From positions 12,164 through 76,163 of the forward strand of contig JAGVGJ010000001.1 in assembly GCA_020057115.1 (NCBI GenBank): a stretch of 64,000 bases of DNA, in the 5' to 3' direction. Position 1 is the stretch's first letter; each line of letters opens with the position of its first letter. A program made the position numbers and the translations under genes. Under the pieces are notes generated by a model. The model made no database searches, had not been told where the DNA came from, and saw only the letters and a list, made by a program, of their open reading frames with translations. The stretch comes from Candidatus Omnitrophota bacterium. GTDB lineage: Bacteria; Omnitrophota; Gorgyraeia; 2-01-FULL-45-10. Shown in pieces: positions 1,569 through 59,147 of the stretch.

Positions 1569-1595
1569 AGATTTTTTCGGGCGTTAAGTTACGCC

Positions 1596-1733
1596 CCTCT
1601 CGGGATGGGAAAGGTGTCTTTACGCGAACGTTCCATTCCCAGAGGGAATGTCACTCGGAAGGGCGCGATTTTCGTTGAAAAATAGCGCCCTTCGACGTCG
1701 CTCCAAGACACCTTTCCCATCCCTCGGGGGCCC
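1596..1733. repeat. Palindromic repeat element, copy A (~135 bp, + orientation)
   Basis: Outer arms cgggatgggaaaggtgtc...gacacctttcccatcccg with an internal GC hairpin (gggcgc...gcgccc) and a cttcgacgtcgctcc core. Near-identical copies at 45655-45794 and, inverted, at 1957-2081 and 56391-56515. Confidence 0.8.
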
Positions 1734-1745
1734 CTTTGAAGGCCG

Positions 1746-1956
1746 AAAAATCTCCTCAGCAAAGAGGCTTTCGAGATGAGGGACGTTTCTAAATCTGATC
1801 TTGGGACGTTTGTAAATCTAATCCTGCACCTGTCCCCGATCATTTTAGGGGACAGGTGTGATCTTAAATTTAGGGACACGTGCAGGATGGAATTTAGAAA
1901 CGTCCCTGAATTGCCTGCCAGTTTCCTTCTCTAGATTTTCGGCTCATGAGCGCCCT
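1746..1956. repeat. Central long imperfect palindrome between inverted copies A and B
   Basis: Perfect 16-bp arms agggacgtttctaaat/atttagaaacgtccct and inner 11-bp arms cacctgtcccc/ggggacaggtg, with further nested imperfect arms. Together with copies A and B it forms a ~500-bp foldback. Confidence 0.7.
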
Positions 1957-2081
1957 CGAGGGGCGGGGTGTCCTGGAGCGACGTCGAAGATCGCTAACTT
2001 ACAACGAAGTTAGCGATCTTCCGAGCGAACTTTCCTGCGGAAAGAGAGCGTTCGCGGAAGGACACCCCGTCCCGAGAGGGC
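1957..2081. repeat. Palindromic repeat element, copy B (inverted relative to A)
   Basis: gagcgacgtcgaag...cgagcgaactttcc...gacaccccgtcccgagaggg is the reverse orientation of the copy-A motif blocks; the internal hairpin sequence differs. Confidence 0.75.
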
Positions 2082-2118
2082 TCAAGAGCTGCCGAAAATA
2101 TTTATCATTAATTTTTTC

Positions 2119-2147
2119 TTGAATTGCGCGGGATCATATGGTAAACT
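2119..2147 (+). promoter_or_regulatory. Sigma70-like promoter (TTGAAT-17-TAAACT) giving a leaderless or near-leaderless transcript for the 2154 ORF
   Basis: -35 TTGAAT at 2119-2124, 17-nt spacer, -10 TAAACT at 2142-2147. The ATG at 2154 lies 7 nt after the -10 and has no Shine-Dalgarno. Confidence 0.3.
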
Positions 2148-2153
2148 TTTGCC

Positions 2154-2348
2154 ATGAGCAAGTATATAGGAATAGCAATAGGCGTCGCTCTTACTGTCCT
2201 GGGGCTTGTAGCTTTGGTGGGATGGTGGAGCGATTTTATTTCTATAATCAAAGGCTCGATACCCGCAATAATAATATTCGCCGGCATCATCGCTCTGATC
2301 GCCGGGATAAGTCAGCTGCAGGACGAACTGGTAGATAAAAAGAAGTAA
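2154..2348 (+). CDS. Small (64 aa) two-TM-helix membrane protein, hypothetical
   Basis: ORF with two strongly hydrophobic segments and a charged C-terminal tail (DELVDKKK). Promoter-like signal immediately upstream. Confidence 0.4.
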   Translation: MSKYIGIAIGVALTVLGLVALVGWWSDFISIIKGSIPAIIIFAGIIALIAGISQLQDELVDKKK

Positions 2349-2559: not shown

Positions 2560-4875
2560 GTGATGGATAAGTCAGGAAGCATCAATTCTCGTTTGTCCGA
2601 TAACGCGAAAAAGGTTTTGGATAAGAGGTATTTAAAGAAGGATGATAATGGCGCATGCCTTGAGACGCCGGAAGACATGTTCCGCCGCGTGGCCAGGAAC
2701 ATAGCCACGGCAGACTCGCATTACAAAAAGTCGAAAGAAGAGATCTTAAGGACCGAGGAAGAGTTCTTCGACATGATGACGAACCTCGAGTTCCTGCCGA
2801 ACTCGCCGACCCTCATGAACGCCGGCCGCGACCTGCAGCAGCTCTCGGCGTGTTTCGTCCTGTCGATAGACGACTCGATGGAGTCGATATTCGAAACGAT
2901 AAAAGACACAGCTATCATACATAAATCAGGCGGCGGCACAGGATTCAGCTTTTCCCGCTTAAGAGGCAAGAACATGCCGGTCCGATCGACGGGCGGCATA
3001 TCTAGCGGCCCGGTCTCATTCATGAAGGTATTCAATGCCGCGACCCAGGCGGTGAAACAGGGCGGCACTCGCCGCGGCGCCAACATGGGCATCTTGAGGG
3101 TGGACCATCCGGATATCGTTGAATTCATCACATGCAAAGAGAATGACAAGGAGATCACGAACTTCAATATCTCCGTAGCCCTGACCGAAGATTTCATGAG
3201 AAGGGCGAAGAATGACGAAGAGTATGACCTCATCGATCCGCGCTCCAAGAAATCCGTAGGAAAGCTTAAGGCGCGAGAGGTCTTCGACCTTATCGTCAAG
3301 ATGGCCTGGAAGAACGGCGAGCCGGGGATCATATTCATCGACAGGATGAACAGGGGCAACCCGACGCCAAAGCTCGGTGAGATAGAATCTACCAACCCGT
3401 GCGGCGAGCAGCCTCTGTTGCCTTACGAGAGCTGCAACCTCGGATCCGTTAATGTAGCTAAGATGATCTCCGACGGCAATATCGACTGGCGTAAGTTCGG
3501 CGTGACGATAAGGAAGGCCGTCCACTTCCTTGACAATGTCATAGACATGAACTCTTATCCTTTAAAGAGGATAGAGGATACCACTAAAGGCAACCGCAAG
3601 ATAGGCTTAGGCATAATGGGCTTTGCCGACATGCTTTATATGCTCGGCATACAGTATAATTCGGACGATGCGATAAAGCTCGGCGAGAAGATCATGAAGT
3701 TCACCCTGGACGAGGCGAGAGCCGTTTCCGAGGAGCTTGCCGAGGAGCGAGGCGCTTTCCCGAATTTCAAGAACAGCGTATTCGCCGTAGCCCGCGCGAA
3801 GCCCTTGAGGAACGCGACGCTCACCACGATCGCGCCCACGGGGACATTATCGATCATAGCCAACTGTTCGAGCGGCATAGAGCCGGTATTCGCCATCTCC
3901 TATATAAGGAATATAATGGACAACACCAAGCTCGTAGAGGTCCATCCGTATTTCCAGGAAGTGGCCGAGAAGAACGGCTTCTATTCGGTCGAGCTCATGA
4001 ACCTGATAGCCCAGAAGGGGACCATAAAGGGTTTTGACGAGATACCGGGCGATATCCAGAAGATGTTCGTGACAGCCCACGATATCGAGGCTGTATGGCA
4101 TGTCAGGATGCAGGCGGCATTCCAGAGGCATACAAATAACGCCGTATCCAAGACCGTGAATCTCCCGTCGCATGCCACTACCGATGACGTAAAAGAGGTA
4201 TACATGCAGGCGTATGAGAGCGACTGCAAGGGCGTCACCATCTACAGGGATAATTCAAGGGAAGAACAGGTATTGAACATACCGGCGCACCAGGGCGCAG
4301 GCGATAAGAAGGCCCAGGCCAGGCATAAGATAATACCAAGGCCTAGACCGACCGTAACAATAGGCACGACCGCCAAGGTGTCCACAGGCTGCGGTAACCT
4401 CTATATAACGATAAACCAGGATGAGCAGGGGCTCCCTTTCGAGGTCTTCATGCATATGGGGAAGGCCGGCGGCTGCGCGATGAGCCAGCTTGAGGCTATA
4501 GGCAGGCTCGTATCCCTGGCATTCAGGAGCGGTATAGAGACCAATGCCATAATAGAACAGCTGCGCGGCATAAGATGTCCCTCCCCGAGCTGGGAGAAGG
4601 GCGGCAGAATATTCTCATGCAGCGATGCTATAGCAAGGGCCATAGAGAAGAGTATCCACAAGAAGACCAAGCCGCTGGCCGAATTAACGGAAAATACGGC
4701 TTCCCAGGCGCCGGCTGCGCCTTCCGCGGATTCCGATAGCGCTACCCAGGCCTCAAGATCCACAGATATTGAAGTCGAAAGCATAGTGGGCGTGTGTCCT
4801 GATTGCGGCGGCGCCTTATGGCATATAGAAGGCTGTATGGTCTGCAAGTCTTGCGGCTATTCGAAGTGCGGATAA
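2560..4875 (+). CDS. nrdJ: Class II (adenosylcobalamin-dependent) ribonucleotide reductase
   Basis: 771 aa with a typical NrdJ N-terminus and a C-terminal CxxC...CxxC zinc ribbon (CPDCGG...CKSCG). Confidence 0.9.
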   Translation: MMDKSGSINSRLSDNAKKVLDKRYLKKDDNGACLETPEDMFRRVARNIATADSHYKKSKEEILRTEEEFFDMMTNLEFLPNSPTLMNAGRDLQQLSACFVLSIDDSMESIFETIKDTAIIHKSGGGTGFSFSRLRGKNMPVRSTGGISSGPVSFMKVFNAATQAVKQGGTRRGANMGILRVDHPDIVEFITCKENDKEITNFNISVALTEDFMRRAKNDEEYDLIDPRSKKSVGKLKAREVFDLIVKMAWKNGEPGIIFIDRMNRGNPTPKLGEIESTNPCGEQPLLPYESCNLGSVNVAKMISDGNIDWRKFGVTIRKAVHFLDNVIDMNSYPLKRIEDTTKGNRKIGLGIMGFADMLYMLGIQYNSDDAIKLGEKIMKFTLDEARAVSEELAEERGAFPNFKNSVFAVARAKPLRNATLTTIAPTGTLSIIANCSSGIEPVFAISYIRNIMDNTKLVEVHPYFQEVAEKNGFYSVELMNLIAQKGTIKGFDEIPGDIQKMFVTAHDIEAVWHVRMQAAFQRHTNNAVSKTVNLPSHATTDDVKEVYMQAYESDCKGVTIYRDNSREEQVLNIPAHQGAGDKKAQARHKIIPRPRPTVTIGTTAKVSTGCGNLYITINQDEQGLPFEVFMHMGKAGGCAMSQLEAIGRLVSLAFRSGIETNAIIEQLRGIRCPSPSWEKGGRIFSCSDAIARAIEKSIHKKTKPLAELTENTASQAPAAPSADSDSATQASRSTDIEVESIVGVCPDCGGALWHIEGCMVCKSCGYSKCG

Positions 4876-5762: not shown

Positions 5763-5852
5763 AACTGATCAAAGGTAAACCCGGTGAAAGCCGGCGTCAC
5801 AAAACTATAGGGTCTAAATCTCTGGAGACAGGGACAAGACAGCCAGTTGCCG
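5763..5852 (+). promoter_or_regulatory. Candidate c-di-GMP-I (GEMM) riboswitch aptamer
   Basis: GGTAAAC then a ccggt-GAAA-gccgg hairpin (GNRA tetraloop), then CGTCACAAAAC, then GGGTCTAAAT (tetraloop-receptor-like), then GACAGCCAGTTGCC. This lines up with the GEMM-I consensus as recalled from memory, not from a run search: GGCAAACC-P1(GAAA)-GACGCAAAGCC...GGGUCUAA...AGCCnGnnGCC. Confidence 0.55.
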
Positions 5853-5885
5853 TTTAAGCTTACGTCAAAGCCTGGATTGAATATC

Positions 5886-5925
5886 GATCCCGATCTGCGT
5901 TCAAGACGTAGGTCGGGATTTTTTA
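5886..5925 (+). terminator. Intrinsic terminator; likely expression platform of the riboswitch
   Basis: 11-bp stem cccgatctgcg/cgtaggtcggg (two G-U pairs), loop ttcaaga, followed by attttttat. Confidence 0.6.
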
Positions 5926-6070: not shown

Positions 6071-6172
6071 ATGGAATATAAATATGAACCAACGCAGCCG
6101 GAAGACGAAGGACAGTGCGATGAGTATTGTCCGTGCTGCGGTTATACGCAGTGCATATGCGGCAACGGATAG
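6071..6172 (+). CDS. Unannotated 33-aa Cys-rich micro-ORF (MEYKYEPTQPEDEGQCDEYCPCCGYTQCICGNG)
   Basis: Strong SD AAGGAGGG ending 4 nt before the ATG. Acidic N-terminal half and a C-terminal half with 6 Cys (CxxxCxCCxxxxCxC). Absent from the ORF track because it is under 60 aa. Confidence 0.45.
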   Translation: MEYKYEPTQPEDEGQCDEYCPCCGYTQCICGNG

Positions 6173-6199
6173 CATCATAAAATTTTCTTCGCCTTAGTT

Positions 6200-6400
6200 C
6201 GGCGCCCCACCCAATGGTAGGTCTGTCGCTTGACGTTCGTTCGGATTAGCCATCCTCACTCACTCCGGAAAAATTTTGATGGCCGGTCAACCCTGACTAT
6301 AAGCAAAACTATAGACAGGTTTGCCCGGCCTTTCTATATCGGCATAAAGTATCAAAATTTTTCAACGGCCGCTCCAGACCCACCATTGGGTTGGGCGCCG
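6200..6400. repeat. 26-bp terminal-inverted-repeat-bounded ~200-bp element with an internal 22-bp hairpin (MITE-like or structured RNA)
   Basis: cggcgccccacccaatggtaggtctg at 6200-6225 against cagacccaccattgggttgggcgccg at 6375-6400 (2 mismatches). Internal arms ggccggtcaaccctgactatag / ctatagacaggtttgcccggcc. Confidence 0.5.
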
Positions 6401-6579
6401 GCCTATGTCCTTATGGCAAGAACAAACCCCGAACCCAATTTAGCACATTGAAAATGTTAGGCCTTTTGGAAGTAGAAAAATGGTTATATTTAACAATTTT
6501 TTGATAATAAAAGGACCGAGGATGTTTGAGGCCTCCTCCGGAGGCCGAGTTCCGCAAGCCGCCGTAGTATTCACCAGGC

Positions 6580-6614
6580 GGCAGCCCCCGAAGGGGGCTG
6601 GTCCCCATTTTTCT
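6580..6614 (+). terminator. GC-rich hairpin plus T-run (terminator-like; possible 3' end of a small RNA)
   Basis: agcccccgaagggggct hairpin followed by ggtccccatttttc. A second hairpin, ggcctcctccggaggcc, lies just upstream. Confidence 0.35.
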
Positions 6615-6793
6615 ACTGAACAAAAGGCCGACCCTAGAGTTTAATTAGAGGGGGAACATTTTCAGTGATAAATTGGGTTCAGGGTTTGGGATATCTCGTA
6701 TAGAGTGCGGGATATCCCTACGTTCGCGTAAGATACCCCGCCTTTTTGGAACACAGGTATCTCGAGAGGCCCGCCTTAAGATGCGTGAAATTT

Positions 6794-6849: not shown

Positions 6850-8433
6850 GTGAAGGTAAGGCGCGCGCTTATAAGCGTTTCGGATAAGGCCGGACTTGAA
6901 GAGCTGGTCAAGGCATTGAATAAATTCAATGTCGAGATACTTTCAACGGGCGGGACCGCAAAGGCCATAAGGGCGCTTGATATACCGGTTAAGGATGTTT
7001 CGGAATATACCGGGTTCCCGGAGATGCTTGACGGAAGAGTAAAGACGCTTCATCCCAAGATACACGGCGGCCTATTGGCCCTAAGAGACTCTAAAGAGCA
7101 TATGGATACCGCCAAGAAGCATGATATCGGCATGATCGACATGGTCGTCGTCAATCTGTATCCATTCGAGAAAACCGTGGCAAAGCCAGGAGTGAAGCTC
7201 GAAGAGGCGATAGAGAATATAGATATAGGCGGGCCGTCCATGCTTAGGAGCGCGGCGAAGAATCACCGGTCTGTCTGCGTTATATGCGACCCGGCGGATT
7301 ACGGCAGGGTGATCGAAGAGCTGGAGAGGTCCGGCGGCAGCATGTCGGAAGCTCTTTTGACAGAGCTTGGGATCAAGGTGTTCGGCAGGACCGCAGAATA
7401 TGACGCGGCGATATATAATTATCTCACGAAAAATACGAGCCAGGGGCCAGGGGCCAGGGGCCAGGGTCCAGAAGAATTTCCAGAAGTACTGAGCCTGAGT
7501 TTCAAGAAGCTACAGGACTTAAGATACGGCGAGAATCCGCACCAGAAGGCCGCGTTCTATAGAGATGCCTCCATAAATGAATCGAGCGTAGCCGATTCCG
7601 TCCAGCTCCACGGAAAAGAGCTATCATTCAATAATATAATAGACCTTAATGCCGCGCTTGAGATCGTAAAAGAGTTCGACGAGCCGGCGGCCGCGATAAT
7701 AAAACACACAAACCCCTGCGGCGCAGCGACAGCAAAGACTTTAAAAGAAGCGTATCTCAATGCGCTCGACTGCGACCGCTTGAGCGCTTTTGGGAGCATA
7801 GTAGGGTTCAATAGAACCGTCGACATGGAACTTGCAAAAACGATACTGGAGGAGGCTGATTTCGTCGAATGCATGATCGCCCCGTCCTATGATGTAAAAG
7901 CCATCGAAGCGCTGAAGGTCAAAAAAAACCTGCGGCTTATCGAGGTGAAGAACTTTGCCGCAAAACCGTCCGGAAGCAATAAAGACATGAAGAAAGTCAC
8001 AGGCGGTCTTCTGGTGCAGGACAAGGATGCGGCGAGGATAAAGGAGCCCGATCTCAAGATAGTTACAAAGATCGCTCCCACGAAGGAAGAGATGCGCTCG
8101 CTCCTTTTCGGGTGGACCGTGGCAAAACATGTCAAGTCCAACGCGATAGTATTTTCCCAAGGCACTAAGACCATAGGCGTCGGCGCAGGCCAGATGTCGA
8201 GGGTCGACTCGGTGATGATAGCGGCAAAGAAAGCGGGATCCAGGGCCAAGGGCGCGACGCTGGCAAGCGACGCCTTCTTTCCGAAAGAGGATGGAGTTGA
8301 AGAGGCCGCCAGATCCGGCGTAAAAGCTATCATACAGCCCGGCGGGTCGATACGCGATAAAGAGGTCATCGCCTCAGCCGACAAGCTTGGCCTTGCGATG
8401 GTATTTACCGGCACCAGGCACTTCAAGCATTGA
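6850..8433 (+). CDS. purH: Bifunctional AICAR transformylase / IMP cyclohydrolase
   Basis: 527 aa with MGS-like and AICARFT domains (ISVSDKAGL..., TGGTAKA...). GTG start. Carries an in-frame GC-repeat segment at 7441-7470 (QGPGARGQGP). Confidence 0.95.
   Translation: MKVRRALISVSDKAGLEELVKALNKFNVEILSTGGTAKAIRALDIPVKDVSEYTGFPEMLDGRVKTLHPKIHGGLLALRDSKEHMDTAKKHDIGMIDMVVVNLYPFEKTVAKPGVKLEEAIENIDIGGPSMLRSAAKNHRSVCVICDPADYGRVIEELERSGGSMSEALLTELGIKVFGRTAEYDAAIYNYLTKNTSQGPGARGQGPEEFPEVLSLSFKKLQDLRYGENPHQKAAFYRDASINESSVADSVQLHGKELSFNNIIDLNAALEIVKEFDEPAAAIIKHTNPCGAATAKTLKEAYLNALDCDRLSAFGSIVGFNRTVDMELAKTILEEADFVECMIAPSYDVKAIEALKVKKNLRLIEVKNFAAKPSGSNKDMKKVTGGLLVQDKDAARIKEPDLKIVTKIAPTKEEMRSLLFGWTVAKHVKSNAIVFSQGTKTIGVGAGQMSRVDSVMIAAKKAGSRAKGATLASDAFFPKEDGVEEAARSGVKAIIQPGGSIRDKEVIASADKLGLAMVFTGTRHFKH
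7441..7470. repeat. GC-rich oligo-repeat (GGGGCCAGG x3 + GGGTCCAG) in-frame inside purH
   Basis: caggggccaggggccaggggccagggtccag, encoding a Gly/Pro/Gln-rich inter-domain linker. Confidence 0.8.
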
Positions 8434-9744: not shown

Positions 9745-11181
9745 ATGATCGATCGCAATAATACCGAAGATACTATAGCAGCGATATCGTCTCCTATCGG
9801 CGAGGGCGGGATAGGCATAGTCCGCCTGAGCGGTCCGGGAGCGCGCGATATCGCTGATAAGATATTCCTGTCTAAAATCGGCAAGAAACCGTCGACATTC
9901 AAATCACATACCATGCATTATGGCCATATCGTTTCCACCCCGGACCCCGGACCCCGGCCCCTGGAACCTGGAACCTGGACCCTGGACCCTAAGATCATCG
10001 ACGAAGTCCTCCTGACCGTTATGCGCGCCCCGAAGACATATACGAAAGAGGATATAGTCGAGATAAACTGCCATGGCGGCATCCAGGCGCTCGGAGATGT
10101 CCTGGACCTTTGTATCAAAAGGGGCGCGCGGGTAGCAGAGCCAGGCGAATTCACCAGGAGGGCATTCATTAACGGCAGGATAGACCTGGCGCAGGCGGAG
10201 GCAGTCATCGACACTATACGCGCAAAGACCGAAGGCTCCCTTTCGGTAGCCATGAGCCAGCTCGAAGGCGAGCTTTCAGGAAAAATAAACGCATTGCGGG
10301 ATAAGATCATAGGTATAGCCTCGCACGTCGAAGCATCGATAGATTTTCCGGAAGAAGAGCTGGATTTATTCACTGAAGAGACGCTCAAGAGAGTGGGCGA
10401 GGCATTGGTCGAGCTGAAGGGCCTTATAGACTCATCTCGTGAAGGCATGATATTCAGGGATGGCATCCTCGCAGTGATATGCGGCAAGCCCAATGCCGGC
10501 AAATCTAGCCTCATGAACCTCCTTCTTAAAAGGGACAGGGTGATAGTGACCCCGATACCGGGGACTACGCGCGATGCCGTGGAGGAGATGATAAATTTAA
10601 AAGGCATACCGATAAGGCTTGTCGATACCGCAGGGATAGCTGACACCAAAGATGTCATTGAAAAAGAAGGCATGAGGCGATCTAAAAACTATCTCGACAG
10701 GTCTGACGTCGCGCTTCTGGTGTTGGATGGCTCGACTGAGCTGGACAGGGAGGACCTGGATATAATAAAATTGGTAGAGAAAAAGAAAAAAGTTGTTATA
10801 ATAAACAAGACAGACCTGTCTCCCGCAATAAGTGCAAAAGATGTGAAGGCGTATTTTAAGGACGAGCATATAATCGAGATATCTGTCGAAAAGAGAAAGA
10901 ATATAGACGTCCTTGAAAAAGCGATCGTGGATCTGGTGTGGAGCGGCCGCGTCCATGATAAAGAGCATGCGATAGTCGCAAATACAAGGCATAAGGCGCT
11001 CATCGAAAAGGCCTATAATAATATGGGCGCCGTCAAAAAGGCGATGGATAAAGGCTCCTGGCCGGAACTTGTTTCGATAGACCTCAAAGAAGCGGTCTTT
11101 AACCTTGGTCTGGTGGTCGGGAAATCAGTGTCGGACGATATATTGAATAAGATATTCGAACAATTCTGCATAGGAAAGTAG
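9745..11181 (+). CDS. mnmE: tRNA modification GTPase MnmE/TrmE
   Basis: 478 aa with G-domain GKPNAGKSSL and C-terminal CIGK. In-frame GC-repeat segment at 9947-9990 (PDPGPRPLEPGTWTLDP). Confidence 0.9.
   Translation: MIDRNNTEDTIAAISSPIGEGGIGIVRLSGPGARDIADKIFLSKIGKKPSTFKSHTMHYGHIVSTPDPGPRPLEPGTWTLDPKIIDEVLLTVMRAPKTYTKEDIVEINCHGGIQALGDVLDLCIKRGARVAEPGEFTRRAFINGRIDLAQAEAVIDTIRAKTEGSLSVAMSQLEGELSGKINALRDKIIGIASHVEASIDFPEEELDLFTEETLKRVGEALVELKGLIDSSREGMIFRDGILAVICGKPNAGKSSLMNLLLKRDRVIVTPIPGTTRDAVEEMINLKGIPIRLVDTAGIADTKDVIEKEGMRRSKNYLDRSDVALLVLDGSTELDREDLDIIKLVEKKKKVVIINKTDLSPAISAKDVKAYFKDEHIIEISVEKRKNIDVLEKAIVDLVWSGRVHDKEHAIVANTRHKALIEKAYNNMGAVKKAMDKGSWPELVSIDLKEAVFNLGLVVGKSVSDDILNKIFEQFCIGK
9947..9990. 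repeat. GC-rich oligo-repeat (opposite orientation: CCGGACCCC / CCTGGACCC units) in-frame inside mnmE
   Basis: ccccggaccccggaccccggcccctggaacctggaacctggaccctggaccct. Confidence 0.8.
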
Positions 11182-11748: not shown

Positions 11749-11815
11749 TCTTAAAGCTTCCGCTATTAGTATTGAATAATCTACAATATTATAATATAAT
11801 ACAAAACTACCCTAT

Positions 11816-12274
11816 ATGAACAAAAATGTCAATTATTTGATAGATTTACTCAATAACGGCATATTCTGGACATCCTTTGCTTCCTGGCTGATAGCGCAGT
11901 CGATAAAGGTCGTGCTGGGCTGTTTCAGGGAGAAACGTTTCAATTTCCGGTGGTTTGTCGGGACCGGAGGGATGCCCAGCGCGCATGCGGCAGGCGTTTC
12001 GGCGCTAGCCACTTCCGTAGGCGTGACATTCGGTCTTGATTCGGCTCTATTCGCCATAACGCTCATATTTGCTTCTATAGTCATGTTCGACGCCCAGGGT
12101 GTCAGGCTTAATGCCGGCAAGCAGGCGGAGATCCTGAACAAGATGCTCGATGACATATACTGGAAGAAGAAGCTCGATGAAGATAAGCTGAAAGAGTTCC
12201 TCGGGCATACGCCTATCGAAGTATGGGCCGGCACTGTCCTCGGCATAATGGTTTCGCTCCTTCTCTATAAATAA
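11816..12274 (+). CDS. Divergent PAP2-family membrane protein (YuiD/DUF212-like)
   Basis: 152 aa with PSAHAAG and GVRLNAGKQAEILN-type motifs. Sigma70-like promoter TTGAAT-17-TATAAT upstream at about 11772-11800. Confidence 0.6.
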   Translation: MNKNVNYLIDLLNNGIFWTSFASWLIAQSIKVVLGCFREKRFNFRWFVGTGGMPSAHAAGVSALATSVGVTFGLDSALFAITLIFASIVMFDAQGVRLNAGKQAEILNKMLDDIYWKKKLDEDKLKEFLGHTPIEVWAGTVLGIMVSLLLYK

Positions 12275-15724: not shown

Positions 15725-15729
15725 TAATA

Positions 15730-15759
15730 GGGTCCAGGGGCCAGGGTCAAGGGTCCAGG
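15730..15759. repeat. GC-rich oligo-repeat, intergenic between mlaE and mlaF
   Basis: gggtccaggggccagggtcaagggtccagg. Confidence 0.8.
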
Positions 15760-21403: not shown

Positions 21404-23907
21404 TAGAAGATACGAGACAATATCCATTTAATGAGATAGAGTCCAAGTGGCAGGAGTACTGGCGCCAGATGAGGCTCTTTAATGTAGATACCAAAGAATA
21501 CAAGAACAAATACTACTGCCTCATGATGTTCCCGTATCCGTCGGCAGCGCTGCATGTGGGCCACGGCAGGAACTATATAATAGGCGATGCCGTCGCGCGC
21601 TATAAGATGATGCGGGGATATGATGTCCTGACCCCCATGGGATTTGACGCATTCGGCCTTCCCGCAGAGAATGCCGCTATTAAGAGCGGCGTCCATCCCG
21701 AGACATCCACGCTTAATAATATAAGCACCATGAGGCGGCAGTTCAGCCAGTGGGGCGTAGAATACGACTGGGACAGGGAGGTGGTATCATGCCTTCCGGA
21801 TTATTATAAATGGACCCAGTGGATATTCCTTAAGCTTTACGGGAAGGGCCTTGCCTACAAGAAGAAAGCGTTCGTTAACTGGTGCCCTTCATGCAAGACT
21901 GTGCTTGCCAACGAGCAGGTCGTTGACAATGCCTGCGAAAGATGCTCGACAGAAGTCACCCAGAAGGACCTTGAGCAGTGGTTTTTCAAGATAACCCATT
22001 ATGCCGACAGGCTCTTAAAGGATATCGGCAAGCTTACGGAATGGCCCGAGCGCGTCAAGACAATGCAGTGCAACTGGATAGGGAAGAGCGAAGGCGTGGA
22101 GATAGATTTTAAGATAGACGGCTCAAGCGATACGCTAAAGTGTTTCACCACAAGGATAGACACGATATTCGGCGCCACCTTTATAGCCCTCGCCCCGGAG
22201 CATCCTCTTGTAGAAAAGTTCGTCAAGGGATCGAAGGAAGAAAAGGCCGTAGCCGAGCTTGTGCGGAAGATGCGGGATGAATCGAAGATCGAGCGCTCTG
22301 ACGCGAATGTCGAGAAAGAAGGCGCATTTACGGGTAAATATGTGATCAACCCTGTAAACGGCAAGAAGGTCCCGATATGGGTCGCCAATTATATACTCAT
22401 GGAATACGGCACGGGTGCCATTATGGCAGTCCCTGCCCATGACCAGAGGGATTTTGAATTCGCTAAGAAATACAAACTGCCGATCGAGGTAGTTATCGAC
22501 GACCCGAAGAGCCCTCTTAAGGTCGAGGCCATGAAAGAGGCCTATATGGGCGAGGGCATCATGGCTAATTCCGCACAGTTCAATGGCCTTGATTCAAGCG
22601 TTTCCATAACGAAGATAGCCGAGTTTTTTGAAGAAAAGGGTTATGGAAAGAGGACTACTCAATATAAGTTGAGGGATTGGCTCATCTCCCGCCAGAGATA
22701 CTGGGGAGCGCCCATACCGATAATATATTGCAATAAGTGCGGGGTCGTGCCTGTCCCGGAAAAGGACCTGCCGGTGCTATTGCCTAAGAATGTGGAGTTC
22801 AGGCCTACCGGCGAGTCTCCGCTCAAATTCTCTGAGAGTTTTGTCAATACAAAGTGCCCGAAATGCGGCGGCCAGGCGACGAGAGAGACCGACACCATGG
22901 ACACGTTCGTCGATTCAAGCTGGTATTACTTGCGTTATATAACGCCTAAACTGGATCAAAAGCCGTTTGATGCAGAACTGGTAAATAAGTGGCTGCCGGT
23001 CGATCAGTACATCGGCGGCGTTGAGCATGCGATACTGCATCTATTGTATTCCAGGTTCATAACGAAATTCTTAAAAGATATCGGATGCGTGGGGTTTGAC
23101 GAGCCGTTTAAGAACCTGTTCACCCAGGGCATGATAACAAAGAATGGCATCAAGATGTCCAAGTCGAAGGGTAACACCGTATCCCCGGATGATCTGATAG
23201 CCAGTTACGGGGCCGATACAGTGAGGTTATATACGCTTTTTATCGGTCCACCGGAGAAAGATGCCGAATGGTCGGATCGGGGAGTGGAAGGAGCGTATCG
23301 GTTCCTCGGGAGGGTGTGGAGGCTGGTAGAGAAGGGTCCAGGGTCCAGGGTCTCCCGCCCGGCAGACATAGAGGGGCGGGACAGGCAGGGTCCAGGAAAA
23401 GATAAAGAAGATGCCACTTTGAGACGCAAGATCCACTCCACCATCAAAAAAGTCACCGAGGATCTGGACGGAGGATTCCATTTCAATACCGCCATAAGCG
23501 CCGTAATGGAACTCGTCAATGAAACATATGACCGCTTAGCTCAGTCTACGGATGGTTCGTCTGGGGGTGGTGCGGTAGCCGAGGCCATCGAGACTGTTGT
23601 TATGCTCCTCTCGCCATTCGTCCCGCATATCGCCGAAGAGATGTGGCAGAAGCTCGGGAAAAAGAACAGCATATTCAGGGCGAGCTGGCCGCCTTATGAC
23701 GAGAAGGCGCTCGCAGCCGACGTATTTACGATGGTCATACAGGTGAACGGAAGGATGCGGTCCAAGATCGATGTGCCGGCCGGCATGAAAGACGACAAGA
23801 TAAAAGAGATAGCGCTATCCGACCCGAAGGTCCAGCCGTTCATCAAGGACAAGACCGTAAGACAGGTAGTGGTGGTCCCGAAGAAGTTAGTCAACATAGT
23901 AGCTTAA
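21400..23907 (+). CDS. leuS: Leucyl-tRNA synthetase
   Basis: 835 aa with HVGH (HIGH) and KMSKS motifs. In-frame GC-repeat segments at 23333-23355 and 23388-23396. Confidence 0.95.
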   Translation: MIEDTRQYPFNEIESKWQEYWRQMRLFNVDTKEYKNKYYCLMMFPYPSAALHVGHGRNYIIGDAVARYKMMRGYDVLTPMGFDAFGLPAENAAIKSGVHPETSTLNNISTMRRQFSQWGVEYDWDREVVSCLPDYYKWTQWIFLKLYGKGLAYKKKAFVNWCPSCKTVLANEQVVDNACERCSTEVTQKDLEQWFFKITHYADRLLKDIGKLTEWPERVKTMQCNWIGKSEGVEIDFKIDGSSDTLKCFTTRIDTIFGATFIALAPEHPLVEKFVKGSKEEKAVAELVRKMRDESKIERSDANVEKEGAFTGKYVINPVNGKKVPIWVANYILMEYGTGAIMAVPAHDQRDFEFAKKYKLPIEVVIDDPKSPLKVEAMKEAYMGEGIMANSAQFNGLDSSVSITKIAEFFEEKGYGKRTTQYKLRDWLISRQRYWGAPIPIIYCNKCGVVPVPEKDLPVLLPKNVEFRPTGESPLKFSESFVNTKCPKCGGQATRETDTMDTFVDSSWYYLRYITPKLDQKPFDAELVNKWLPVDQYIGGVEHAILHLLYSRFITKFLKDIGCVGFDEPFKNLFTQGMITKNGIKMSKSKGNTVSPDDLIASYGADTVRLYTLFIGPPEKDAEWSDRGVEGAYRFLGRVWRLVEKGPGSRVSRPADIEGRDRQGPGKDKEDATLRRKIHSTIKKVTEDLDGGFHFNTAISAVMELVNETYDRLAQSTDGSSGGGAVAEAIETVVMLLSPFVPHIAEEMWQKLGKKNSIFRASWPPYDEKALAADVFTMVIQVNGRMRSKIDVPAGMKDDKIKEIALSDPKVQPFIKDKTVRQVVVVPKKLVNIVA
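23333..23396. repeat. GC-rich oligo-repeat segments in-frame inside leuS
   Basis: gggtccagggtccagggtctcc ... cagggtccagg, encoding EKGPGSRVSRPADIEGRDRQGPGK. Confidence 0.75.
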
Positions 23908-33417: not shown

Positions 33418-34540
33418 ATGATACAAGAGCTGAATAATGACATAAAACTGAGCGAAGAGAAGCTGAAAGAGCTCAGAGGTTATCTTTGACGTCGATAACA
33501 AGCTAAAGAGGATAACTGTCCTTGAGGAAGAGATCTCCAGGCCAGATTTTTGGAGCAATGAAACACGTTCCAAAGAGGTCATCAGAGAGCTCAAATACTT
33601 AAAAGCCATAGCAGAGCCGTTCTCAAAGCTCACAAGTGATCTTAAAGATATAAAAGAGATAGTCTCCATAGCCGAATCCGGCGACGCGGAATCACTGAAA
33701 CACTTCAAAGAAGAGCTTTCCAGGATAAAACTCAAGATAGATGATATAGAGTTCAGAAGCCTTCTGGGAGAGGAAGCGGATAGTTGTAATGCAATAATGA
33801 GTATCAATGCCGGAGCCGGGGGCACCGAATCATGCGATTGGGCGGGTATGTTGCTGAGGATGTATACCAAGTGGGCCGAGGCAAGAGGATGCGAGATCGA
33901 AAGGATAGACCAGCTCGCAGGTGAAGAGGCGGGCATAAAGAATGTCACGGTGCTCATAAAAGGCGATTATGCTTACGGGTACCTCAAGAGCGAGTCAGGC
34001 GTCCATCGTCTTGTCAGGATCTCGCCTTTCGATTCAAATAAGAGGCGCCACACTTCATTTGCTTCCGTTGATGTCATACCCGAAGTGTCCGACGATATCC
34101 AGATAGACGTAAAGGAACAGGATCTAAAGATAGACACTTATCGCGCCGGAGGCAAGGGCGGCCAGCATGTCAATAAGACCGACTCCGCTGTCAGGATAAC
34201 GCATATTCCTTCAGGCATAGTCGTCCAGTGCCAGAACGAAAGATCGCAGGGCAAGAACAAGGCGATGGCGTTTAAGCTGTTGAGGGCGAAACTTTATGAG
34301 AAAGAGCGTCTTGCCAAAGAGAAGCTGGTGGCTAGCGCTTACGATTCAAAGAAGGAGATCGCCTGGGGCAGCCAGATAAGGTCTTATGTGCTCCATCCGT
34401 ATTCCATGGTAAAGGACCACAGGACAGGCTGTGAGACAGGGAATGCCGAGGCGGTCCTTGAAGGGAAGATAGACGCGTTCATCGAGGCATATTTAAAAAG
34501 GGGCAAGGGTCCGGGGTCTGGGGTCCAGGAGAAGGGGTAG
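33418..34540 (+). CDS. prfB: Peptide chain release factor 2 with a programmed +1 ribosomal frameshift: join(33418..33486, 33488..34540)
   Basis: Frame 0 encodes [23 protein letters not shown] and ends at the canonical AGAGG-UAU-CUU-UGA-C frameshift site (SD-like plus CUU UGA C). The +1 frame continues DVDNKLK... through the SPF and GGQ motifs. The GC-repeat at 34501-34530 encodes the C-terminal [12 protein letters not shown]. Confidence 0.85.
34501..34530. repeat. GC-rich oligo-repeat at the 3' end of prfB (in-frame)
   Basis: gggcaagggtccggggtctggggtccagga. Confidence 0.75.
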
Positions 34541-45266: not shown

Positions 45267-45530
45267 CTACCCTCCATACGCCTCTAAAACGAGCTTCGCT
45301 ATCTCATCCTTTATCTCCCGTTTCAGAGGGTTGACCGTGTTATACCACTTACCATCCTTGCTGCTCTCGCTAGGCATGCTGACGAAGAGCCCGTCCTTGC
45401 CTTCGACCACTCGGAAGCCTTTTATCTCAAGGCTATCGAGTATGGTCACGTCGCAGAAGGCCTTGGTCGCGCCCGAGCCGTCCAGCTTGTGCATCCTTGA
45501 TACAGCCAATCCTAGTTCATTCTCTGCCAT
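45267..45530 (-). CDS. spoVG: SpoVG-family regulator
   Basis: DGLFVSMPS...PLKREIKDEIAKLVLEAY aligns to the SpoVG family. Start set at ATG 45530 with SD AGGAGG upstream. Confidence 0.75.
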   Translation of the reverse strand: MAENELGLAVSRMHKLDGSGATKAFCDVTILDSLEIKGFRVVEGKDGLFVSMPSESSKDGKWYNTVNPLKREIKDEIAKLVLEAYGG

Positions 45531-45586
45531 TTTTATGTCACCTCCTTTCAAATCCTTTAATTTGGGGATTTTGCACCCCTACTATA

Positions 45587-45616
45587 TAAGACGCTCAAAA
45601 TGCCCAAATTGTTGCA
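45587..45616 (-). promoter_or_regulatory. ECF-sigma-type promoter (TGCAAC-N17-CGTCTTA), copy 1, upstream of spoVG-yraN-comM
   Basis: Minus-strand -35 TGCAAC (plus 45611-45616) and -10 CGTCTTA (plus 45587-45593). Part of a 43-bp repeat also found at 47193-47240. Confidence 0.5.
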
Positions 45617-45654
45617 AATTATTTTAAAATATTTTTCGGATGTGCGCTTCTTCC

Positions 45655-45794
45655 CCCTCTCGGGATGGGTAAGGTGTCTTTCCGCGAACGCTCCATTCTC
45701 GGAGGGAATGTCGCTCGGAAGGCCGCAATTTTCGGTGAAAAATCGCGGCCTTCGACGTCGCTCCAAGACACCTTACCCATCCCTCGGGGGCCCC
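45655..45794. repeat. Palindromic repeat element, copy C (same orientation as A)
   Basis: cgggatgggtaaggtgtc...cttcgacgtcgctccaagacaccttacccatccctcg, about 90% identical to copy A. Confidence 0.8.
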
Positions 45795-45871
45795 GCATCG
45801 AGGACCGAAAAAGTAGGAGGGTGGAACTGGAGGGGGAGATTTACTTCTTGAATTATTTCACGGACCGTACT

Positions 45872-46711
45872 ATGATATTTCGTGATATGGGGATATTTGA
45901 GAAAGCGCAGATAGATTTTCTCACCGGGTTCTTCTTAAGGGAATCCTTCGGCCAGTTCCTCGAAAAGGCTATGCGCGAGGCCACGGCCACAAGCGGCGTA
46001 GTTACGCTTGCGCTAGTTGACCTTGACCACTTCAAAAATTTCAACGATAAATTCGGCCATGACTTCGGCGACGAGATCCTGAAGTATTCCGCCAGCACCA
46101 TCAGGCTCACTATGGACGAGAACCAGACCTATTTCTTCCGTTACGGAGGCGATGAATTTATCGTGGTCTTTGCAGGCAAGACGCAGAAAGAGGCCCTCCA
46201 GCTGTTAAAATACTGCAGGCATAACCTCCTCCACAGGCCTTTCCTCTTAAAGAATAAATTCCAGAAGATCACCATGAGTATCGGCGTCGCAAGCTTCCCG
46301 CATGACGCCCAGACCGTGGAGGACCTGATCGCGAAGGCTGATAATGCCATGTACTATTCCAAACGCCACGGACGCAACCGCATAACAATGTGGAGCTCTA
46401 TAAGCCATCTCAAGGCGCGAAATTATTTTATCCTGTTCGGCACCCTGGCCATCATGGTGCTTTCCACTTTCGTAGCGGCATATGTGCCGCCGATCAAAGA
46501 AAGCATAATGGCCTTTATCGGTAACATCAAAGAGCTCCGAAAGGTCTCTTTTGACAAGATCGTGCTTAAGAGCGGCGCTGTGTTTGAAGGCAGGATAGTG
46601 AACGAGGATGCCACTACTATATTTTTGCAATTGAACCTAAAAGAGGGGGAAGGGTCGCTCAAGCTTGACAAGTCTAAGGTGTCAAAGATAATACGCGCCA
46701 AATCTCGTTAG
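45872..46711 (+). CDS. GGDEF-domain diguanylate cyclase with a C-terminal TM helix and ~90-aa tail
   Basis: RYGGDEF motif. Start set at ATG 45872 because the track ORF extends upstream into the palindromic repeat. Promoter TTGAAT-17-TATGAT immediately upstream, so possibly leaderless. Confidence 0.7.
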   Translation: MIFRDMGIFEKAQIDFLTGFFLRESFGQFLEKAMREATATSGVVTLALVDLDHFKNFNDKFGHDFGDEILKYSASTIRLTMDENQTYFFRYGGDEFIVVFAGKTQKEALQLLKYCRHNLLHRPFLLKNKFQKITMSIGVASFPHDAQTVEDLIAKADNAMYYSKRHGRNRITMWSSISHLKARNYFILFGTLAIMVLSTFVAAYVPPIKESIMAFIGNIKELRKVSFDKIVLKSGAVFEGRIVNEDATTIFLQLNLKEGEGSLKLDKSKVSKIIRAKSR

Positions 46712-46739
46712 GGTCAAGGGGCCAGGGTCCGGGGTCCAG
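46711..46739. repeat. GC-rich oligo-repeat immediately after the GGDEF gene stop
   Basis: gggtcaaggggccagggtccggggtccag. Confidence 0.8.
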
Positions 46740-46746
46740 TCGGATA

Positions 46747-47187
46747 TTAAAATCCTATCTTATTACGGCTATTAAATCTCTCAAGCACTTTCGATGCTTC
46801 TTTTTCGCCGCCTTGCTTCCACGCCTCGTTTATCATCACTAGCATCTTGGTCGTTTTTGAATCTACCACCCACTTTGCCCCCAAAATAAGAGTAGCAACG
46901 AGCAGCTGCAGGAAGTATCTCGGGGTAAGGAATGAGAGCGTGAATGATATAATAGCCAGCACCAGATATATGTTTATGCGTTTCATGAAATTACCCTTTC
47001 TGTTTTTAAGTTTCGTATCTTTTAGGAATTCTTCTACGGAATCGAATGCGCACACGGCTTTCTCCAGGCAGCTAGGACAGCTTGCCAGGTGCCCGGCCAG
47101 CTCTTCTCTTTTTTTGCCGCGCAAGGCTCCGCTAAGATAATCCGCCACCTCTATGTCGCTCGGGTGCTTTATTCCGGTATAGGTCAT
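46747..47187 (-). CDS. Zinc-finger (ZAS-like) single-TM anti-sigma factor
   Basis: HxxxCxxC motif (HLASCPSCLEKAVCAF) and a central TM helix. Strong SD AGGGGGA. ATG overlaps the sigma gene stop (ATGA). Confidence 0.6.
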   Translation of the reverse strand: MTYTGIKHPSDIEVADYLSGALRGKKREELAGHLASCPSCLEKAVCAFDSVEEFLKDTKLKNRKGNFMKRINIYLVLAIISFTLSFLTPRYFLQLLVATLILGAKWVVDSKTTKMLVMINEAWKQGGEKEASKVLERFNSRNKIGF

Positions 47188-47849
47188 TTTTGTCCCCCTA
47201 CTATATAAGACGCTAAAAACGGGCAAATTGTTGCAAAAAAAGTTAAAAAACATTTTAAAGCGGCGCGCAGCCTCTCTTTTCCCCGTCGGACGTGGCTTGA
47301 AACAGTGTTCTTAGGCATGCGGGTCATCTTCGCTATCTCGTGGTATTTCTTGCCGTGCAGCAGGTGCAGTTTGATCACCAATTTTTCCACGCTTGGCAAG
47401 TCCTCTATGGACTGGTCTATCTTTTTTGACAGCTCCTGCCTGGAGAGTTCGTCTGCGGGCACAGAGCCGCCGGCAAAAAGGCTAGAGATCAAGTCGACCT
47501 CATCCCCCGTATCCGTATGCGGCAGTATCTCATATCGAACCCCGCGCCTGGCCTTCCTCAAATGCGACACAGCCGCATTCTGCGCGAGCATCGAGATCCA
47601 GCAGGGGAGGCTTGAGATATTGTCGAGAGAAGCCATCTTATCGCTGCGCCACATCGAAGAGAGCGCATCCTGCAGGATATCATCGACGTCATGCGATGTG
47701 GTCTCAAAGCCGCACCGCCTCAGGCGTTTTTCGATCGATATCCGCATGAGGCGGGAATACTTTTTCGTGAAGGCTTCCCAAGCCGCGATATCCCGCGCGG
47801 CACAGCCTTCGATAATGGCCTTATCGTCTTCAAAACGTTCGGTAGGCAT
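47184..47849 (-). CDS. ECF-type RNA polymerase sigma-70 factor
   Basis: Region 2 and region 4 signatures (...LQDALSSMW..., ...LHGKKYHEIAKMTRMPKNTVSSHVRRGKERL). Start taken at the internal ATG (MPTERFED). Confidence 0.8.
   Translation of the reverse strand: MPTERFEDDKAIIEGCAARDIAAWEAFTKKYSRLMRISIEKRLRRCGFETTSHDVDDILQDALSSMWRSDKMASLDNISSLPCWISMLAQNAAVSHLRKARRGVRYEILPHTDTGDEVDLISSLFAGGSVPADELSRQELSKKIDQSIEDLPSVEKLVIKLHLLHGKKYHEIAKMTRMPKNTVSSHVRRGKERLRAALKCFLTFFATICPFLASYIVGGQK
47206..47235 (-). promoter_or_regulatory. ECF-sigma-type promoter (TGCAAC-N17-CGTCTTA), copy 2, inside the 3' end of the sigma gene just upstream of the anti-sigma gene
   Basis: Minus-strand -35 from plus 47230-47235 and -10 from plus 47206-47212. 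39/43 identical to copy 1. Confidence 0.45.
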
Positions 47850-48021
47850 TCCATAGAAGATATCATCTATATGTAAAAATGTCAATTATATTTTATTTTT
47901 AATCAAACAATGGAACCGGCTATTTTTATCCGGGATGTTGCCTATTTAGATTATTATGATATAATTATAACGCTAATCATAAGGACAGTCCATGAACCTT
48001 TTCCACAGATAAAATTTTTGT

Positions 48022-52867: not shown

Positions 52868-52905
52868 CGGCCTTCGACGTCGCTCCAGGGTGCTCTACCC
52901 CGCAT
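52866..52905. repeat. Truncated copy of the palindromic repeat element
   Basis: gcggccttcgacgtcgctccagg matches the internal right half of copies A/C. Confidence 0.5.
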
Positions 52906-52931
52906 GGATCTAAGCGCTTCCGTCTTTCGTA

Positions 52932-56324: not shown

Positions 56325-56351
56325 GGCCGGAGCGATCCGGCCTTCTTTTTT
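56325..56351 (+). terminator. Rho-independent terminator after lolD
   Basis: ggccgga-gcga-tccggcc hairpin followed by ttcttttttcc. Confidence 0.65.
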
Positions 56352-56390
56352 CCAGCTTCCCCTTTAAATTTTTCGGCCTATGGATGCCAT

Positions 56391-56515
56391 TGAGGGGTAA
56401 GGTGTCCTGGAGCGACGTCGAAGGGCGCAATCTTTCAGAGAAGATTGCGCCCTTCCGAGCGAACTTTCCTCTGGAAAGAGAGCGTTCGCGCAAGGACACC
56501 TTACCCCTCAAGGGC
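56391..56515. repeat. Palindromic repeat element, copy D (same orientation as B)
   Basis: gaggggtaaggtgtcctggagcgacgtcgaag...ccgagcgaactttcc...caaggacaccttacccctc. Confidence 0.8.
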
Positions 56516-56595
56516 TTCAAGGAGCTTCCGAAAAATTATCCCTCATTCCTATTTGACATAATATGCTTTATTATATATACTTATAATACTTAATT

Positions 56596-59079: not shown

Positions 59080-59147
59080 GGTCAAGAGTCCAGGGTCAAG
59101 GGTCCAGAAAATTTTACTGGACCCAGGCCCCTGGCCCCTGGACCCTG
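59079..59147. repeat. GC-rich oligo-repeat in inverted pair (hairpin) between mcsB and clpC
   Basis: gggtcaagagtccagggtcaagggtccag ... ctggacccaggcccctggcccctggaccctg. Confidence 0.8.

Follow-up and report, generated by a model that had tools for sequence, protein, structure and literature searches.

The palindromic region between the GT2 and MamI-like genes

The window analyzed here is a stretch of 64,000 nt of contig JAGVGJ010000001.1 (assembly GCA_020057115.1) from an uncultured Candidatus Omnitrophota bacterium, and the region under study is a non-coding foldback at positions 1571-2101. This foldback is probably a pile-up of three non-autonomous palindromic repeats, designated element A, the central palindrome and element B, and its ability to pair end to end would be a consequence of how they are arranged. 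Upstream it is bordered by a plus-strand gene for a family-2 glycosyltransferase (GT2; 48-1568; it scores 35.7 bits with Pfam PF13632, the cut-off being 27), whose TAG stop codon (1566-1568) lies 2 nt ahead of element A. Downstream follow a plus-strand gene (2154-2348) for a 64-residue protein with two transmembrane segments that resembles MamI (NCBIfam, E = 1.4e-9, below the cut-off; Pfam PF26391 (MamI) is recorded for its orthologues) and nrdJ, encoding a class II ribonucleotide reductase (2560-4875). The order GT2, MamI-like gene, nrdJ and msc is conserved in many Omnitrophota loci. Orthologues of the GT2 protein with 72-83% identity occur in Omnitrophota metagenome-assembled genomes, while NrdJ is at most 77% identical to proteins of GTDB representative genomes, its best matches all being from metagenome-assembled Omnitrophota. 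Related loci and contigs used for comparison are labeled L002, L004, L005 and so on.

Element A comprises 180 bp (1571-1750, core 1593-1732) bounded by TTTTTTCGG and CCGAAAAA. Its sense strand, defined for all copies as the strand reading GGTGTCCTGGAGCGACGTCGAAG, is the minus strand, on which it reads GGTGTC-TGGAGCGACGTCGAAG. Element B comprises 166 bp (1936-2101, core 1950-2083) and has its sense strand on the plus strand. Both belong to one repeat family, termed family 1, in which A falls into subfamily 1 and B into subfamily 2; they score 130 and 147.5 bits, respectively, with R1, a covariance model built from five family-1 cores. Next to A lies its tail with a gap of ~10 nt (1751-1778, no strand assigned), which contains the motif GGAAnCTGG and bears a weak likeness (44-53% identity) to the tails of B and of the further copies C and D described below. 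On the side of B, a gap of ~10 nt is followed by the 5' tail CCAGTTTCCTTCTCTAGA (1918-1935; together 1908-1935, plus strand), and the direct repeat of 1918-2082 at 56352-56516 runs beyond TTTTCGG. The 129 bp between the two tail segments (1779-1907, no strand assigned) form a palindrome of a type named here after its GGGAC motif, which occurs as a single copy in the window. It has perfect outer arms of 16 bp (1779-1794 and 1892-1907) and perfect inner arms of 11 bp (1827-1837 and 1848-1858) separated by a loop of 10 nt; a repeat search also returned it as a nested palindrome with arms of 25 and 34 nt. A 23-nt unit, GGGACGTTTnTAAATCTnATCnT, forms a tandem pair at 1780-1825, and a third, inverted copy of it lies at 1884-1906. 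An earlier note on this DNA had described inverted copies A and B around a long central palindrome; the arms were found as described, and the center of symmetry lies at ~1843 rather than at 1848. Open reading frames overlapping the palindromes (43-96 aa) are spurious.

A and B are each palindromic, with outer arms of 30-33 nt that lie 70 nt apart, and their opposite orientation enables the region to pair from one end to the other, 109 nt of A (1613-1721) matching B (1958-2066) with 75% complementarity. Folded as RNA, positions 1565-2110 (546 nt) reach -288.8 kcal/mol compared to -180 +/- 7 for shuffled sequences (z = -15.3); folded as DNA they reach -155.7 compared to -79 (z = -13.6). Taken singly, A, the central palindrome and B give z-scores of -7.5 to -10 on both strands, with -8 to -10 for the central one. 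When the pair span was limited to 200 nt at most, three separate hairpins with a total of -275.9 kcal/mol were obtained. The whole foldback gains only 13 kcal/mol (4%) over these, thus folding from end to end is marginally better than local folding. The folding back that had been noted for ~500 bp at 1596-2081 is real, but the elements extend further, from TTTTTCGG to CCGAAAA(A), at 1571-1750 and 1936-2101. A small hairpin (gggcgttaagttacgccc, 1579-1596) had been assigned to the stop of the GT2 gene; this sequence turned out to be the variable spacer of element A and not a separate terminator. A terminator scan of 1569-2110 detected no terminator-like site on either strand; on either strand the elements open with a T-run and close with an A-run, and they do not have the make-up of an intrinsic terminator.

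Family 1 is conserved in fold and junction

The window harbors four full copies of family 1 (~170-190 nt) and one half copy. Apart from A and B, these are the solitary copy C on the minus strand (45633-45815; subfamily 1, 128.8 bits) in a divergent promoter region, the solitary copy D on the plus strand (56370-56535, with its tail 56352-56535; subfamily 2, 146.8 bits) flanked by an intrinsic terminator (56325-56351) on one side and by the ilvE promoter (56553-56581) on the other, and the decayed half copy E on the minus strand (52856-52907; nhmmer E = 5.6e-7), which keeps an invariant 16-mer. This 16-mer, CTTCGACGTCGCTCCA, is found exactly in all five copies (5 matches compared to 0.57 expected by chance). 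A degenerate 23-nt pattern around it had no match in 185,579 GTDB species representatives, and in JGI metagenomes it had one genuine match (L002), located 5' of a ComF-like gene of another Omnitrophota organism, plus two chance matches inside genes. Identity of the cores is 91% between A and C, 87% between B and L002 and 80% between B and D, and it is lowest between A and B (71%).

All full copies share one fold, consisting of a long stem, a 3x3 internal loop and a three-way junction. On the sense strand a weakly conserved tail of ~20 nt (CCAGyTTCC...) is followed by TTTTTCGG, a variable spacer and an outer helix of ~19 bp, then by the symmetric 3x3 internal loop (GGA opposite GNA), a 4-bp helix and the junction, which bears one hairpin of 15-16 bp and one of 6-7 bp before the return strand, a spacer and CCGAAAAA complete the element. 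In A, B, C and D the ends are thus TTTTTCGG...CCGAAAAA, in addition to the 30-33-nt outer arms, and GAGCG is present on each of the three junction strands.

Across only five sequences 96% of the cells take part in pairs, and compensatory double changes are seen at 14 of 56 (or 51) pairs. None of 500 shuffles reached this number, and partners slid by 1-3 columns gave 0-2 such pairs. Subfamily 1 (A, C) and subfamily 2 (B, D, L002) are set apart by a paired 4-nt indel (GGAT/ATCC), and such paired indels break any reading frame. With R1 two distant members were detected, at 122-251 of L008 (36 bits) and at 10189-10343 of L013 (33 bits), bringing the known members to eight. In these two all helix sequences differ, whereas CUGGAGCGAC, AGCGA and GAGCG..GCGGAAG persist at the junction, demonstrating that the conserved items of family 1 are its fold and its junction.

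At the Rfam gathering threshold only a c-di-GMP-I riboswitch and two tRNAs were found in the window, and at E <= 10 positions 1500-2600 matched only miRNA models at chance level (E >= 0.2). The whole foldback had no blastn match among PLSDB plasmids or GenBank phages, and nothing relevant was found in the literature on palindromic repeats of Omnitrophota. Family 1 is a repeat family not described before, though of a familiar kind.

Several copies lie next to features of separate note. The half copy E overlaps the last 3-4 codons and the stop (52856-52867) of a gene for a 1598-residue PAS/GAF/GGDEF/HD-GYP protein (48071-52867), and thus supplies the present C-terminus of that protein. Beside C lies one copy of a 68-nt repeat (45569-45636; 81% identical to 47188-47255), the minus strand of which reads GCAAC-N17-CGTCT, an ECF-sigma-type promoter; this copy is 5' of the minus-strand gene 45267-45551 and the other one is at an ECF sigma/zf-HC2 anti-sigma pair (46747-47885, minus strand). 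Downstream of D, the ilvE reading frame (301 aa, ATG at 56596) is ~12 residues longer than nearly all homologues listed (mostly 288-292 aa, covering 96% of the query), and a TTG ~39 nt further downstream, preceded by AAGGAG, is the likelier start.

The foldback is an insertion at a hot spot

Where relatives share this gene order, the GT2 gene and the small gene are separated by 44 nt (L004), 50 nt (L019 and L022), 54 nt (L085, with 80% GT2 identity), 63 nt (L010) or 66 nt (L005), compared to 585 nt in the window. In these short spacers the stop codon is directly followed by TTTTTCTTG, which comprises a T-run and a -35 element, and then by an extended -10 element TGnTAnnnT. The possibility considered in the earlier note, that the foldback is an insertion, is thereby supported. 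A large cis-regulatory structure, also raised there, is not supported, nor is a conserved leader, since relatives lack the foldback and the promoter is located downstream of it.

Other palindromic elements occupy the same site in further relatives. L008 carries an insert of 498 nt that contains its distant family-1 member, in the position and orientation of A, followed by a palindrome of a second family. In L009 a remnant of 54 nt keeps only the termini (TTTTCGATT..CCCTCGAGGGG..AATCGAAAA). The contig of the closest relative, L084 (83% GT2 identity), ends 120 nt after the stop inside an element resembling a third family. Different palindromic elements at one site mark it as an insertion hot spot. 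A and the elements of L008 and L009 agree in position and orientation, which may reflect either a shared ancient insertion or repeated targeting; of the closer relatives, L085 has no element and L084 has one of another family. Two more palindromes, of other families, lie side by side in the 1.2-kb spacer between msc and purH, at 6195-6405 (31-nt arms) and 6423-6688 (24-nt arms). Copies related to the former occur in L008 and L007 and twice in L085, while the latter resembles the insert of L084. With unrelated palindromes placed side by side in few permissive spacers, clustering is a habit of this lineage.

The site of D gives a similar picture. Its spacer between the genes for an ABC ATPase and IlvE is ~300 nt long in the window, but 61 nt in a relative with 82% identity (L108) and 80 nt in one with 86%, and in L108 the same promoter, TTGAC-17-TATACT, directly follows the stop. 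A search with R1 detected no family-1 copy in 24.7 kb of an 80-82% relative.

A and B arrived independently

The earlier note had likened the architecture to a composite mobile element. Repeats like those of mobile elements are indeed present, but not as a single unit: A and B are only 71% identical and fall into different subfamilies, and the triple of A, central palindrome and B recurs neither in the 64-kb window nor in 400 kb of related loci nor in pattern scans. A composite in which two inverted family-1 copies mobilize the DNA that they enclose, in the manner of a pair of IS copies in a composite transposon, might be read from the bracketed 185-bp segment and from the 8-bp sequence ATTTTTTC that flanks the whole cluster at both outer borders (1571-1578 and 2111-2118), and pairs of MITEs (short for miniature inverted-repeat transposable elements) can mobilize intervening DNA (PMC10969869). 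However, the left ATTTTTTC is part of the terminus of A itself, the center has no cargo gene, and both the subfamily difference and the lack of a second triple argue against such a unit, which is therefore very unlikely.

Formation of the palindrome in place was also considered, with one element and its flank being duplicated in inverted orientation by template switching and having decayed since. The mirror symmetry of 1571-2101 about ~1843 would fit. Against this, A shares 91% identity with C, which lies at a distance of 44 kb, but 71% with B, whereas B shares 87% with the copy found in a different metagenome, and the paired 4-nt indel sets their subfamilies apart. Moreover, the palindromic symmetry breaks in the 10-nt segments between the center and the tails (1769-1778 and 1908-1917), which are complementary at 2 of 10 positions. 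The core identities and these segments rule out a recent local inverted duplication, and formation of the palindrome in place is highly improbable. They also speak against a composite of two sister copies. Taken together, two members of different subfamilies arrived independently of each other.

The central palindrome and its company

For the central palindrome no second copy was found in the window, and BLAST detected no wider similarity to other palindromes of the GGGAC type. The motif at its termini, (A/T)AGGGAC(n)GTTTC, is likewise found at the ends of palindromes at L013 10344-10506, at L017 3753-3865, where the palindrome lies alone between a stop codon and a T-run/-35, and at L002 ~101-153, a short one. 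A 17-mer of the central unit had 19 single matches in IMG/VR, judged to be at about chance level for a 16-base pattern. In L013, in L002 and twice in the window, a GGGAC-type palindrome adjoins the tail (5') side of a family-1 element, as read on its sense strand, and therefore the pair of a center-type and an A/B-type element recurs even though the triple does not. C and E have no such neighbor. Short GGGAC...GTCCC hairpins with A- and T-runs (L011 2926-2983; L017 3753-3865) look like bidirectional terminators. Their stem motif is that of the GGGAC-type palindromes, and the GGGAC type may therefore be derived from terminators or mimic them.

With six GGGAC motifs on both strands, those of the plus strand being spaced by 23, 46 and 24 nt, and with its 23-nt tandem repeat, the central segment might be taken for an iteron- or operator-like array that binds a protein regulating the MamI-like gene and nrdJ. 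Yet it is missing in all relatives with the same operon, the regulatory region of nrdJ lies further downstream (2377-2457), and similar palindromes are found at unrelated loci in L013 and L017. Such a function is hardly credible for this segment.

The promoter downstream of the foldback is conserved

Directly beyond the foldback the plus strand carries a T-run (2112-2117) and a promoter (together 2111-2147) with the -35 element TTGAAT (2119-2124) and the extended -10 element TGgTAAACT (2139-2147), in full TTTTTTCTTGAAT, 14 nt and TGGTAAACT. TTGAAT-17-TAAACT matches the consensus at 8 of 12 positions, which is below the cut-off of the consensus scan. The arrangement TTTTTCTTG, 17 nt, TGnTAnnnT nevertheless follows the GT2 stop in L004, L005, L010, L019, L022 and L085, and follows the inserts in L008 and L009. 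The -10 element ends 6 nt (not 7 nt, as noted earlier) before the ATG of the MamI-like gene, and no Shine-Dalgarno (SD) sequence is present, as had been stated. Residue 1 of the 64-aa protein aligns with the start Met in 15 Omnitrophota loci (tblastn). The distance from -10 to ATG is 8-10 nt in L004, L008, L009, L019 and L022 and for the neighboring gene in L017, compared to 17-31 nt with a GGAGG-type SD sequence in L085, L010 and L005. The same arrangement was observed at the window gene starts 30165, 45887 and 47849 (minus strand) and in L002 and L017. A leaderless start of the MamI-like gene is a reasonable reading and is independent of the foldback; the comparison lends phylogenetic support to near-leaderless expression of a conserved MamI-like protein beside nrdJ.

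MamI-like proteins of 63-64 aa with two transmembrane segments are encoded directly upstream of nrdJ in the window and in 16 related loci (31-57% identity). These relatives of a magnetosome protein are fixed beside a ribonucleotide reductase in genomes that are apparently non-magnetotactic. Just 5' of the nrdJ promoter (TTGACA-16-TATACT, 2430-2457) lie two palindromes at ~2377-2424, cACTACTAATTGTGt and CCACTACCCATAGTAT, which are kept in an 80% relative (L085 ~11797-11850) and which, by the box consensus, are putative NrdR-box-like sites.

A mobile repeat or a structured RNA

Copies of family 1 stand in both orientations relative to neighboring genes, and scans inside and around the copies revealed neither a promoter before nor a terminator after any of them. 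These observations, together with the insertion sites, make it probable that the region is a cluster of non-autonomous repeats like MITEs or like REPINs, which are doublets of repetitive extragenic palindromes (REPs), and that it is ordinary selfish DNA. In the corresponding scenario three repeats would have come together by accident at one permissive site, the few bases that separate the GT2 stop from the T-run/-35 of the promoter behind it, and neither this ancestral promoter nor the MamI-like gene's near-leaderless start was disturbed. An enzyme encoded elsewhere would copy family 1 into further intergenic sites; it probably recognizes a folded form (hairpin or three-way junction), given that the bases of the junction are fixed and those of the helices co-vary. 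While the repeat family, its conserved structure, the insertion relative to related genomes, the hot spot and the separate origin of A and B are shown, we infer that the elements move by the action of this enzyme in trans and have no host function.

A functional RNA would, however, likewise be expected to combine a strongly conserved junction with helices that co-vary between distant genomes. Family 1 could accordingly be a multi-copy non-coding RNA or a cis-acting RNA, and the foldback could shield the promoter of the MamI-like gene and nrdJ from read-through of GT2. The invariant junction and co-varying helices extend to genomes as distant as 68% NrdJ identity, the purine-rich GGA/GNA internal loop could form G.A pairs, possibly in tandem, on the sense strand only, and the sense strand is more stable than the antisense strand by 2-10 kcal/mol in all seven members compared (7/7). 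GT2 furthermore has no terminator of its own in relatives, and a read-through RNA would thus contain the foldback. On the other hand, the copies are found in both orientations to flanking genes and without promoter-like sites before or terminators after them, D has a terminator on one side and a promoter on the other, the element is missing from orthologous sites, E is a decayed half copy, and Rfam gave no match. The counts of G.U and C.A (16 vs 9) differ weakly and are too small to tell an RNA from a DNA element. Function as an RNA is therefore quite unlikely.

The stability of the sense strand and the conservation of the junction nonetheless weigh against the reading as mobile repeats, as do several further observations. 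Compared by eye, the flanks of A/B, C, D and L002 show no consistent target-site duplication, and C and D in particular have no consistent flanking direct repeat; ATTTTTTC at the borders of the cluster is ambiguous as a target duplication because TTTTTCGG is the element terminus in C and D. Among the window genes scanned with NCBIfam and Pfam, no transposase, RAYT or other candidate enzyme was found near any copy. The relatives with empty sites have proteins 72-86% identical to those of the window and are not strains of one species, and with 14-28% divergence at the protein level the insertion is deduced from spacer length and promoter homology rather than from a precise pair of empty and filled sites. 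Finally, the adjacency of GGGAC-type palindromes and family 1 in three genomes exceeds random accumulation, and suggests polar insertion or co-mobilization as a lead.

Polar insertion directed by hairpins, on a single strand and similar to that of REPINs or IS200/IS605, would place family 1 3' of a hairpin with its tail nearest. Family 1 might then be a structure-specific replicator instead of a classical MITE defined by its terminal inverted repeats, and its folded single strand, with the long stem, the GGA/GNA internal loop and the three-way junction bearing GAGCG on each strand, would be recognized and copied by a dedicated Omnitrophota enzyme. In A, B, L013 and L002 the tail side of the sense strand indeed lies within 0-10 nt of a GGGAC-type palindrome, the tail of D is 9 nt from a terminator hairpin, L017 shows a lone GGGAC-type palindrome in this kind of site, and structure rather than sequence is conserved in family 1, as in REPINs (PMC3116915). 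The central palindrome would have arrived first, as in L017, and since it shows the same hairpin on both strands, one family-1 copy could have been captured per strand, yielding A, center and B head to head; if true, this would explain both the one copy per strand beside the center and the GGGAC-type company in three genomes. However, C and E have no hairpin on the tail side, hairpins are common in these spacers, only eight members are known, the GGGAC-type palindromes share only a terminal motif of ~11 nt, and no Y1/HUH transposase was seen among the window genes scanned. Polar insertion is on balance a tentative and rather unlikely proposal, and the pile-up of MITE/REPIN-like repeats is preferred.

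Further features of the window

The c-di-GMP-I riboswitch found with Rfam (5764-5854, 64.6 bits) is followed by a hairpin with a T-run at ~5886-5925. The gene regulated by it is seemingly a 33-aa cysteine-rich reading frame (6071-6172, MEYKYEPTQPEDEGQCDEYCPCCGYTQCICGNG) with a strong SD sequence. Arrays of 7-nt units (GCCAGGG/AGGGTCC and complement) are present on both strands at 7439-7471, 9937-9990, 15729-15759, 23333-23352, 34493-34529, 46697-46733 and 59078-59147. They are partly intergenic and partly within reading frames, where they encode Gly/Pro-rich linkers (for example SQGPGARGQGP in PurH); a coding period of 7 nt is unusual.

Significance and comparison with known systems

For annotation, the 540-bp foldback is probably explained as a pile-up of selfish repeats, and confusion with a composite transposon, a recombination site or a leader of the riboswitch kind can be avoided. 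Several palindromic repeat families that reuse few permissive sites between a stop codon and the following promoter are documented in Omnitrophota, a phylum for which almost all knowledge comes from metagenome bins. Assemblies from short reads are broken by repeats of this sort, as seen in L084, whose contig ends inside one, and the repeats are possible strain markers. If a mobilizing enzyme is found, family 1 with its invariant junction and co-varying helices would be a good system for studying structure-specific mobilization of DNA.

Like a composite transposon, the region has two inverted repeat copies that bracket a foreign segment. It differs in the 71% identity of the flanking copies, in the enclosed DNA, which is a non-coding palindrome and not a cargo gene, and in that the block was seen once. 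Integron attC sites have R''/R' boxes (RYYYAAC/GTTRRRY) at the base of the stem, form arrays of a single orientation and lie adjacent to an integrase. This candidate was rejected, as GTTAAGT occurs only in the spacer of A, with no RYYYAAC partner and no counterpart in B, C or D, and the copies lie in both orientations between housekeeping genes. The ERIC/IRU and YPAL elements of enterobacteria are imperfect palindromes of ~127-170 bp that lie in intergenic regions in either orientation, have size variants arising by internal indels and may affect the mRNA if co-transcribed. Family 1 has no sequence relation to them and belongs to another phylum; moreover, transcription units are the usual location of ERIC elements, whereas D has a terminator on one side and a promoter on the other.

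The closer likeness is to MITEs and REPINs. With MITEs such as Correia/CREE of Neisseria and QMITE2 of Coxiella (130-190 bp; PMC10969869), the repeats share a small non-coding body (A 180 bp, B 166 bp, center 129 bp), long inverted termini, a stable stem-loop, multiple diverged intergenic copies dispersed in both orientations near promoters and gene ends, decayed partial copies, and presence or absence at orthologous sites, the relatives in question having 72-86% protein identity. They differ in that neither a definable target-site duplication nor a parent IS with matching ends was found, in that conservation peaks at the internal three-way junction and the 16-mer instead of the extreme termini, and in the variable spacers just inside the TTTTTCGG termini.

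REPINs, which are mobilized by RAYTs, have invariant 16-mers, common compensatory changes in their hairpins, decayed singlets and clusters (PMC3116915). Family 1 resembles them in having two inverted units, with arms GGTGTCyT-nnn-GCGA.. around a variable middle, joined by a compensatory stem (96% paired, 14 double changes, 0/500 shuffles), and likewise in its invariant 16-mer, half copies, clusters and divergence across related genomes. It differs in size and shape (~140-190 nt with a branched three-way interior compared to a simple hairpin of ~70-110 nt). Its arms are not hairpins themselves, nor are they short REP palindromes with a 5' GTAG-type tetranucleotide, and no RAYT gene was observed among the window genes scanned. 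MITEs in turn typically form stable stem-loops and lie in intergenic DNA that is rich in AT (PMC10969869). It is this combination, a REPIN-like signature at the level of DNA and stem-loops like those of MITEs, that favors the reading of the foldback as a cluster of MITE/REPIN-like repeats.

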